This document shows, one piece after another, positions 13,913-14,773 of a DNA stretch of 64,000 nt; position 1 is the stretch's first letter, and each line of letters starts with the position of its first letter. The DNA lies in the IMG/VR virus record IMGVR_UViG_3300012983_000032, positions 29,793 through 93,792 of that record, one strand, 5' to 3'. The notes below the pieces were generated by a model that did no database searches, was not told the origin of the DNA, and was given only the letters and a program-made list of their open reading frames with translations. Origin of the DNA: a virus. Its lineage: Duplodnaviria > Heunggongvirae > Uroviricota > Caudoviricetes. Position numbers and translations under genes: made by a program.

Positions 13913-14773
13913 CTATTTTAACAAACTTAACACATTTTGACTTTGAGAGTTTGCTTGACTAATCATAGCAATACTTGAATTCTGTAATATCTGATTACGA
14001 GTATATTCAACCATTGCAGAAGCCATATCTTCGTCTCTAATAATAGATTCTGCAGAAGTTAAATTTTCTGCGGCAATTGCAATTCCTTTTGCAGCTGTTT
14101 CCATACGATTTTGGATTGCACCCAAATTTGCCCTTTGACTATTTACAATTTTCAAAGCATTATCAATTGTTGCCAAAGTTATATTTGAACTTTCTACATC
14201 TTCTACAGAAACAAGATTTCCTATACCACCATTTTGGTCTTCTCCTTTAAGACCTAATGCCCCAGCAGTTGCAGCAGCAATATTTACAGAAATTGATTGG
14301 TCTACATTTGCACCAACCTGAAATATCATTTTTTCTCCAGCCTCATTATCTGCATATCTCCCAGTTAGCATATTAAGGCCATTAAATTGAGCAGAAGAAG
14401 CGATTCTATCAACCTCTGCCACAAGCTGACTTACTTCGACTTGAATTTGAAGTCTATCTTCTGAAGAGTACAAACCATTACTTGACTGCACTGCAAGTTC
14501 TCTAATACGTTGTAGAATATCAGTGGTCTCTTGTAGATATCCTTCTGTTACTTGAATAAAGGAAACACCATTTTGAACATTCTTATTTGCCTGATTTAAA
14601 CCGCGAATTTGGCTTCTCATCTTCTCAGATACTGCCAAATTTGCTGCGTCGTCACCCGCTCTATTAATCTTCTGTCCAGAAGATATTTTTTCCATAGAAC
14701 TTTTAAGGGCTTGAGTATTCAAGTTCTCCTGTCTAGCAGCAAAAATGCTACTCATGTTGTGATTAATAATCAT
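13913..14773 (-). CDS. flaB: Flagellin, spirochete FlaB-type core filament protein
   Basis: [15 protein letters not shown] ... [28 protein letters not shown] ... [26 protein letters not shown] ... C-terminal QNVLSLLK. Full-length at 286 aa, with conserved D0/D1 and a short variable region. Confidence 0.85.

Follow-up and report, generated by a model that had tools for sequence, protein, structure and literature searches.

FlaB-type flagellin genes in probable huge phages of Treponema and their possible part in the periplasmic filament

Phage-borne flagellins have been described in FRphi-type loci, in which a nuclease-dead relative of TnpB, named TldR, lies beside a phage flagellin gene (fliC_P) and its guide RNA silences the host fliC (10.1101/2023.11.30.569447; PMC13418256). 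The prophage flagellin FliC_P is built into the host flagella (10.1101/2023.11.30.569447; PMC13418256), and it enhances motility (PMC13418256). We analysed a stretch of 64,000 nucleotides (hereafter the window; positions 29,793 to 93,792 of the Caudoviricetes record IMGVR_UViG_3300012983_000032 in IMG/VR), which carries on its minus strand, at 13913-14773, a gene for a FlaB-type core flagellin made of the D0 and D1 domains only. Our preferred explanation, to which we give a probability of about 0.55, is that the gene encodes a working, phage-adapted FlaB isoform of a phage of about 425 kb that infects gut or rumen Treponema, and that the protein is built into the periplasmic filament.

The locus resembles the FRphi FliC_P of Enterobacter (Wiegand et al., Walker et al.) in that a phage-borne flagellin isoform keeps conserved D0/D1 domains. 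As with fliC_P, sister phages appear to reuse the host sigma-28 programme, and a TnpB-family gene adjoins the window flagellin. Unlike the FRphi loci, this one has no TldR, and its TnpB is catalytically intact by sequence and recently inserted. The carrier is very likely a huge phage, whereas that of FRphi is a temperate, siphovirus-like prophage of about 40 kb. The phage FlaB has no variable D2/D3 domains, its differences being found in the D1 loops and a lateral contact, and the sheath protein FlaA travels with the flagellin in related phages. The filament here is periplasmic and sheathed, unlike the external flagella of the FRphi system; therefore, immune evasion and protection from flagellotropic phages are unlikely to be the benefits. 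Large phages also carry host-derived auxiliary genes which sustain a host function, such as the psbA genes of cyanophages. Like genes of that type, the phage flaB is host-derived, encodes a protein in high demand, is under purifying selection, has phage codon usage and falls in a phage-specific clade. Unlike them, it encodes a building block of a motility organelle and not a metabolic enzyme or a photosystem subunit.

The closest structural comparison is with T. denticola FlaB1, FlaB2 and FlaB3 (TDE1477, TDE1004 and TDE1475; PDB 10PL, 10PM and 10PP), which are of the same length class (284-286 aa) and likewise have only D0/D1. The chains of PDB 10PP and 10PL are FlaB3 and FlaB1, respectively (PMC13439194). 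Our analysis showed that the window open reading frame (ORF) encodes 286 aa from ATG to stop and contains both flagellin domains of Pfam: Flagellin_N (PF00669) at residues 3-139 (E = 2.5e-38; 131.7 bits against a curated cut-off of 26.6) and Flagellin_C (PF00700) at residues 201-285 (E = 4.8e-22; 78.5 bits against a curated cut-off of 23). T. denticola filament chains of 284-286 aa align with it end to end (1-285/286), with scores of 346-347 bits for 9pil and 10pp, 334 bits for 10pl and 319 bits for 9pim. Below these Treponema-type chains ranked short flagellins of 265-282 aa, one chain of which is named FlaB1. A first-pass annotation, made from the sequence alone, had called a complete, 286-aa spirochete flagellin of the FlaB type, and this is confirmed in both parts: the ORF, the two domains and the full-length alignment show a complete protein, which is short, lacks D2/D3 and has its nearest cellular relatives among the spirochetes. 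The motifs it quoted, including QNVLSLLK, were found with one difference: KINRAGDDA stands in the window in place of the RINRAGDDA of the host consensus.

In the T. denticola filament, S115, S126 and T137 are O-glycosylation sites common to FlaB1 and FlaB3, T167 is a glycosylation site of FlaB3, the longitudinal contacts are Q88, R91, E92, D106 and E225, and the lateral contacts are R223, R244 and N277, with R244 named for FlaB1 (PMC13439194). We found that S115, S126, T137, Q88, R91, E92, E225 and R223 are kept in all 31 phage flagellins and D106 in 30 of them, and the window flagellin retains all nine. The glycosylation sites, the longitudinal contacts and R223 are thus shared with T. denticola FlaB. 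Unlike T. denticola FlaB, the phage proteins have R244 changed to I/V and T167 to S/A, together with three substitutions at positions diagnostic for the phage clade (G166A, M168A and Q239T); they are also phage-encoded, form a separate clade and follow phage codon usage. Position 277 is Gln in the phage clade and in most hosts.

The search for cellular homologs covered GTDB representatives, with one genome per species. Among the best 80 loci, 79 were named Treponema, Treponemataceae or Spirochaet*, and the remaining one belonged to an unnamed 'bacterium'; identity to the window protein was 60-68% throughout. The best homologs hence lie within the spirochetes and not outside them. The phage flagellin is only 60-69% identical to the sampled Treponema FlaBs. 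The best 120 matches in a metagenome protein set were 72-100% identical to the window flagellin, and many of them were on contigs of 100-460 kb. In a bootstrapped neighbour-joining tree of 31 non-redundant phage-side flagellins and 91 non-redundant Treponema FlaBs, the phage flagellins were separated from the Treponema FlaBs in 60/60 replicates. They form four deep subclades, each with at least one member observed in a phage context. Mean identity of the phage clade to the two host paralog groups is 66.4% and 64.7%. Since these distances are nearly equal and the clade is separate, no assignment to FlaB1, FlaB2 or FlaB3 could be made. The leader of the window flagellin resembles that of the less similar host paralog group.

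The gene is judged from its sequence to be under strong purifying selection. The ratio of non-synonymous to synonymous substitutions (dN/dS) is 0.037-0.044 at a dS of about 1 within the window subclade (against its closest relatives, loci L087 and L088), and about 0.1 between phage subclades, where dS is saturated. Its GC content at third codon positions (GC3), 0.216, stands at the phage mean (0.226 +/- 0.035 for 37 phage ORFs), against a mean of 0.46 for Treponema flaB, which points to full adaptation to phage codon usage. The flagellin was found on several huge-phage backbones. Outside the window subclade, the 20-kb neighbourhoods share essentially the flagellin alone with the window (74-80% aa identity); L093 additionally has a DNA polymerase at 42% and one more ORF at 25%. 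The flagellin is therefore by far the best-conserved gene common to these distantly related phages, which reflects either tight functional constraint or phage-to-phage transfer. None of the genes that flank the phage flagellins, FlaA included, was seen at a distance of up to 8 kb from host flaB genes, and so there is no evidence for capture of a larger host segment. The earlier description of a host-derived gene calls for revision to the extent that this is no one-off, recent pick-up, since the clade is old, monophyletic and under selection.

The 5′ leader (14774-14811, minus strand) consists of a hairpin with a GGA loop, AAGAC-AAUGGAAA-GUCUU, followed by the Shine-Dalgarno (SD) region with a second GGA, CAAGGAUGA. 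It is identical in L001, L087 and L088. Among the five phage groups examined, the window group, L089, L093 and L094 have a leader with both the hairpin GGA and the SD GGA, whereas the L091 leader lacks the hairpin GGA; the stem sequences differ between subclades. Of 147 host flaB leaders, 95 show the same two-GGA architecture, which shuffled controls reach in 4.4% of cases. CsrA and FliW are present in T. denticola, and CsrA sites have been reported near the SD sequences of its flaB1 and flaB2 (PMC9481697). By analogy with these sites, the phage leader has a CsrA-type two-site architecture and may bind CsrA.

Previous work has indicated that T. denticola flaB2 is sigma-28 dependent, with the −10 element CCGATAA (PMC9481697). 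Both sigma-28 and CsrA-type signals were found in the phage clade, like those of the T. denticola flaB genes (PMC9481697). In L094/L095 a textbook sigma-28 promoter, TAAA-N16-GCCGATAA, stands upstream of the leader, 9 nt from the hairpin, and L093 has the promoter-like sequence TTAA...GTCGATAA. In the window lineage the expected position is occupied by the 3′ end of a small ORF of 69 aa (14792-15001, minus strand). There, 13 nt from the hairpin, we identified a degenerate sigma-28-like site, AAAA-N15-TCCAATAA (14823-14849, minus strand), whose −10 element is one base off that of T. denticola flaB2; its position and near-match make it a weak candidate promoter. The promoter box placed 91 nt upstream of the gene by the first-pass annotation could not be substantiated: the sigma-70 scan called nothing there, promoter-like sites in the flagellin region were no more frequent than expected (11 found against 14.5 from shuffles), and the position falls inside the conserved 69-aa ORF. 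This ORF, also called as a gene in independent contigs, is rich in Cys (CxxC...CxCxxC). Its product is 83% identical at the aa level to that of L087 and 73% to that of L088, both of which keep the Cys pattern, and it matches no Pfam family. Its stop codon is 18 nt ahead of the flagellin start, its 3′ end overlaps the leader, and it is probably co-transcribed with the flagellin. It is absent from the other phage subclades, where unrelated small ORFs take its place.

Genes for FlaA were found beside the phage flagellins on three of the four other backbones examined. In L089 and L091, a short FlaA (about 275 aa) is encoded one to three genes downstream of the flagellin (L089:12282-13124 and L091:11307-12134); both proteins score above the Pfam cut-off for PF04620 and have a Sec-type signal peptide. 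In L093, a gene after the flagellin (10961-11773) is FlaA-like but more divergent. The phage FlaA is weakly similar to T. denticola FlaA (PDB E about 1e-3). A profile built from the three phage proteins matched 149 clusters, on contigs that reach 554 kb; two of the contigs listed are equal in length to contigs with phage flagellins. No FlaA gene was found in the 64-kb window, and the neighbouring 279-aa ORF at 11348-12187, tried as a candidate, showed no similarity to FlaA; the window lineage appears to have FlaB without FlaA. A sheath protein exported through Sec is sensible only on a filament, and therefore incorporation is favoured over a purely cytoplasmic decoy.

With respect to the replicon, ENA contig ERZ27246346:k141_1467315 (425,174 bp) is 100% identical to the window over the 10 kb compared. 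The identical flagellin with the same neighbours recurs on six or more contigs that were assembled independently from ENA, Logan and JGI samples, and two further contigs, of 460,660 bp and 80.8 kb, have a 94%-identical copy with the same synteny. Since the same junctions recur in at least six independent assemblies, a chimera with host DNA, against which the first-pass annotation had cautioned, is excluded. The window lineage contigs of 425,174 and 460,660 bp are both larger than 200 kb, the size that defines jumbo phages. The genes of the window include a family-A DNA polymerase, two helicases, two RNA ligases, DNA methyltransferases, thymidine kinase, Thg1, and the chaperones DnaK, DnaJ and an Hsp20-like protein, while the majority of its ORFs match no Pfam family. 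The polymerase is about 24% identical to those of SPO1-like Bacillus phages and of assorted Vibrio and Klebsiella phages. Neither tRNA genes nor an integrase were seen in the 64 kb. On the left side, the search for virion genes along the contig gave DnaJ, SAM synthetase and a clamp loader; at the right end, one protein was without a record and the other led to a contig that stops within the span of the window. GC content is 32%, against a mean of 43% for the Treponema loci.

Against deposited phages, megablast with 25 kb of the window gave no near-identical match, the tblastn matches of the flagellin among deposited phages were mostly short, dubious records, and IMG/VR single-protein searches with the window DNA polymerase and a 608-aa backbone protein gave no close relatives. 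As for the sister contigs, IMG/VR lists L093, L094 and L095 as viral, with lengths of up to 301 kb; flagellin-bearing sisters encode RIIA (E = 1e-81), a head-maturation-type protease and a weak portal match. L089 (326 kb) and L091 (402 kb) consist mostly of ORFs without a Pfam family. On the basis of gene content, contig size, the IMG/VR status of the sister contigs and their RIIA and head protease, the window replicon is very likely a huge phage, in line with the first-pass annotation. Its host is most likely a gut or rumen Treponema.

On the 3′ side, the first-pass annotation had given the gene its own terminator, and our scan agrees: an intrinsic terminator with a 12-bp stem lies 100 nt beyond the flagellin (13786-13813, minus strand; dG −17.6 kcal/mol, z −5.0), and its fold was equalled by none of 200 shuffles. 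The stem is conserved in L087/L088, where the changes are confined to the loop. The 3′ untranslated region (UTR) from the stop codon to the terminator, as delimited by blastn block boundaries and junction sequences (13814-13912, minus strand), has no significant structure (z −0.18). Its first 64 nt are common to L087/L088, in which a gene resembling those of homing endonucleases is inserted directly behind this shared stretch. This 249-aa gene with a NUMOD3 motif (L087:10956-11705; also in L088), probably a homing endonuclease by its motif, lies at nearly the same spot as the TnpB element of the window. Two different selfish elements use the region 3′ of the flagellin as a landing site. An Rfam search over 10.5-15.5 kb matched no omega-RNA family at E up to 1; its single match, to CRISPR-DR41 (E = 0.16) within the flagellin gene, is a chance one.

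The adjacent TnpB named by the first-pass annotation is borne out by its Pfam domains (HTH_OrfB_IS605, OrfB_IS605 and Cas12f1-like_TNB). The element is 1,539 bp long (12242-13780, minus strand), is of the TnpB-only IS200/IS605 type and occurs once in the window. Its tnpB ORF (12250-13614, minus strand; the ATG at 13608 is the probable start) encodes a protein of 452/454 aa, which can be aligned from end to end with ISDra2 TnpB (E = 5e-58) and keeps the RuvC residues D (GLDF), E (GIEDL) and D (RDVNAAINL) and the CxxC...CxxC zinc finger. It thus shares with ISDra2-type TnpB (PDB 8H1J and 8EXA) the domain set, the RuvC triad, the zinc finger and a clean empty site, and differs in having no tnpA and in residing in a phage genome. 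The right end is 8 nt past the stop codon. L087/L088 lack the element while keeping the flagellin in the same place, with the empty site TTTTTTATT|TTGTTAATATAA, and no TnpB was seen in the 20-kb neighbourhoods of L089, L091, L093 and L094. Therefore, the idea that the flagellin is a passenger of TnpB does not stand; the element is a discrete insertion. The GC3 of tnpB (0.314) is above that of all 37 phage ORFs measured. The transposon-associated motif (TAM) is possibly TTATT or TTTAT. The predicted guide or target, TTGTTAATATAAAGTGTATG, is the flank 3′ of the right end (12222-12241, minus strand), the first 12 nt of which equal the empty-site sequence of L087. Given this clean empty site, the flank belongs to the phage itself. 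It had no 12-nt exact match in the 1.09 Mb searched around Treponema flaB genes (80 loci), and its 21 matches with up to 3 mismatches were scattered, with no common 5′-flanking motif. To judge from these features, TnpB is an ordinary, recently arrived selfish insertion that is functionally unrelated to the flagellin.

The following course of events would fit a working isoform. An ancestral phage would have captured a Treponema flaB along with its 5′ leader, and the gene would then have been kept by purifying selection and spread over several distantly related huge-phage backbones. During infection, transcription would start from the host-type sigma-28 promoter in sister phages and, in the window lineage, probably together with the upstream 69-aa ORF or from the degenerate sigma-28-like site. 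Translation would come under the host CsrA/FliW control of flagellin through the retained leader with its GGA hairpin and SD GGA. The host flagellar type III system would export the protein, S115, S126 and T137 would be glycosylated, and the subunits would polymerise into the core of the periplasmic flagellum. The outcome might be a sustained supply of filament while host expression fails during a long infection, or a filament whose properties are changed by the phage-specific substitutions at the lateral interface. Modulation of motility, an effect on the filament and a decoy role are all functions that the gene may have; incorporation into the filament is favoured over a decoy role, because the linkage to FlaA and the fully conserved polymerisation and glycosylation residues are best explained by it.

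Several points weigh against this explanation. Expression, export, incorporation and a benefit to the phage are steps that we infer. R244 is Ile or Val in 29 of the 31 phage flagellins (Ile in the window) and Arg in 81 of 91 host sequences, and the T167 glycosylation site is Ala in the window copy; either change could mean altered or even disruptive assembly. A clear sigma-28 promoter was not found in the window lineage, and neither its 425,174-bp nor its 460,660-bp contig appeared among the 120 FlaA matches listed. The leader hairpin of the window is not unusually stable (z −1.1), only that of L093 being distinctive among the phage leaders; the leader argument is therefore based on the design of the motif and on homology with host leaders. 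Capsid, portal, terminase and tail genes were not found among about 50 window ORFs searched with Pfam and/or PHROGs, a scan which covered 64 of the 425 kb. The assignment of the host is based on the origin of the gene and not on CRISPR spacers or co-occurrence.

Two other explanations accept a functional protein. The flagellin might act as a regulatory decoy which sequesters FliW and so frees CsrA, or its leader might titrate CsrA; host flagellin synthesis and the CsrA regulon would then be reprogrammed with no need for entry into the filament. The two-GGA leader common to phage and host flaB genes is in keeping with this, as is the conserved ENL(T/Q) segment of the phage flagellin, with the Asn that B. 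subtilis Hag requires to bind FliW. The occurrence of both CsrA and FliW in T. denticola, with sites near the flaB SD, also agrees (PMC9481697). A decoy, however, would have no need of the longitudinal contacts and the three universal glycosylation sites, which are kept in 30-31 of 31 sequences, and would leave unexplained the Sec-exported FlaA beside the gene in three phage subclades; we regard it as unlikely. The clade-wide change of R244 to I/V at the lateral interface (29/31), together with G166A, M168A and Q239T, could instead mark a poison or altered subunit that is exported, enters the filament and weakens its lateral packing through the loss of R244 and the changes at 166-168 and 239. 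Motility would be stalled or altered, with the infected cell held in place, for example, or its shape changed. Yet these substitutions are conserved and the longitudinal contacts intact, to which a differently packed, functional isoform fits equally well; the co-carried FlaA suggests building of the filament and not breaking; and FliC_P, the one tested precedent, enhances motility (PMC13418256). A poison subunit is accordingly rated as distinctly unlikely.

The presence of a phage flagellin with an adjoining TnpB-family gene also recalls the fliC_P-tldR architecture of FRphi, in which case the guide RNA of TnpB would silence the host flaB while the phage copy is expressed. We consider such remodelling scarcely credible, and a TldR-type regulator of the flagellin was rejected: the RuvC D/E/D residues and the zinc finger are intact in a protein that aligns at full length with an active TnpB, the insertion is missing from the closest relatives, no TnpB was seen in the 20-kb neighbourhoods of the other subclades, the guide-side flank equals the phage empty site with no 12-nt and no consistent match in 1.09 Mb of host flaB regions, and GC3 marks the element as a recent arrival. 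Finally, the gene might not be phage-borne or not functional, lying on a fragment of a chromosome or megaplasmid or on a chimera, or being a neutral, recent passenger. The window scans detected none of the capsid, portal, terminase and tail genes, and close backbone relatives were found neither in IMG/VR nor among deposited phages, which would agree with this. It is nevertheless very improbable in view of the recurrent junctions, the phage-like gene content with most ORFs outside any family, the sister IMG/VR viral contigs with RIIA and head protease, the low GC with a fully ameliorated flagellin GC3, and the dN/dS of 0.03-0.1 over saturated dS. Incorporation of a working FlaB isoform into the filament thus remains the explanation we prefer.

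Our analysis also showed other features of the window. The DnaJ, DnaK and Hsp20-like genes form a cluster at 130-3854 (minus strand), and homologs of this DnaK in various deposited records, among them uncultured huge phages of 630-735 kb, share 53-60% identity with it. The two T4-type RNA ligases and the Thg1 tRNA-His guanylyltransferase (24032-25324, 50150-51532 and 54068-54847) suggest a capability for RNA or tRNA repair. At 15091-18454, ORFs for polytopic membrane proteins (291, 270 and 207 aa) adjoin a GT2 glycosyltransferase, and a second GT2, 43% identical to the first, lies 20 kb away at 38121-39113. This block is conserved in L087 and L088 and may be a surface-glycan modification module. 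An isolated ORF of 475 aa (45104-46531, minus strand) is low in complexity and rich in Lys, Glu and Ala, with no family and no match in deposited phages. As a capsid candidate it was dropped, the AlphaFold model being all-helical and uninformative (pLDDT 57); it may be a scaffold or internal protein.

Among the related contigs, L094 (301 kb, IMG/VR, with a flagellin of the clade) encodes an RIIA-type lysis inhibitor (14771-15820), a ClpP/head-maturation-type protease (8285-9040) and several radical-SAM proteins near the flagellin. In L089, a GGDEF+EAL protein of cyclic-di-GMP turnover (14981-16333) is encoded two genes from the phage FlaA. ORF coverage of L089:1-9000 is merely about 50% under the standard code; recoding of a stop codon was tried as an explanation, and neither TAG nor TGA read-through gives long ORFs.

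In the literature on flagellins encoded by phages or viruses we found solely the TldR/FRphi system and an unrelated flagellum-binding phage protein. The word flagellin is absent from the huge-phage, jumbo-phage and virome literature searched, and the animal-gut jumbo-phage surveys consulted mention neither flagella nor Treponema. Within the literature searched, FlaB and FlaA genes in huge spirochete phages therefore appear to be unreported. The phage flagellins known so far belong to temperate enterobacterial prophages, come with an RNA-guided repressor and concern exposed, external flagella; here the same idea would be met in a new setting, that of huge phages and periplasmic flagella, with no TldR and with a sheath protein in related phages. 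We hold tentatively, at a little short of even odds, the wider view that widespread huge phages of gut and rumen Treponema encode a filament kit, namely a FlaB with an altered lateral interface and, in most lineages, also a short FlaA, which is wired to the host sigma-28 and CsrA control and rebuilds or sustains the endoflagella during infection.

If true, these would be the first virus-encoded components of the spirochete endoflagellum, and a case of phage-driven flagellar remodelling that is independent of TldR and whose benefit is neither immune evasion nor exclusion of flagellotropic phages. The periplasmic setting, the lack of TldR and the presence of FlaA point to motility or cell mechanics, and not surface antigenicity, as the trait being manipulated. 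The natural FlaB variants, such as R244I/V, are available to probe the recent T. denticola filament structures, and the flagellin may help to link an uncultured clade of phages of 300-550 kb to its hosts. As T. denticola is genetically tractable, this would be a testable case of a virus that supplies the building blocks of an organelle.

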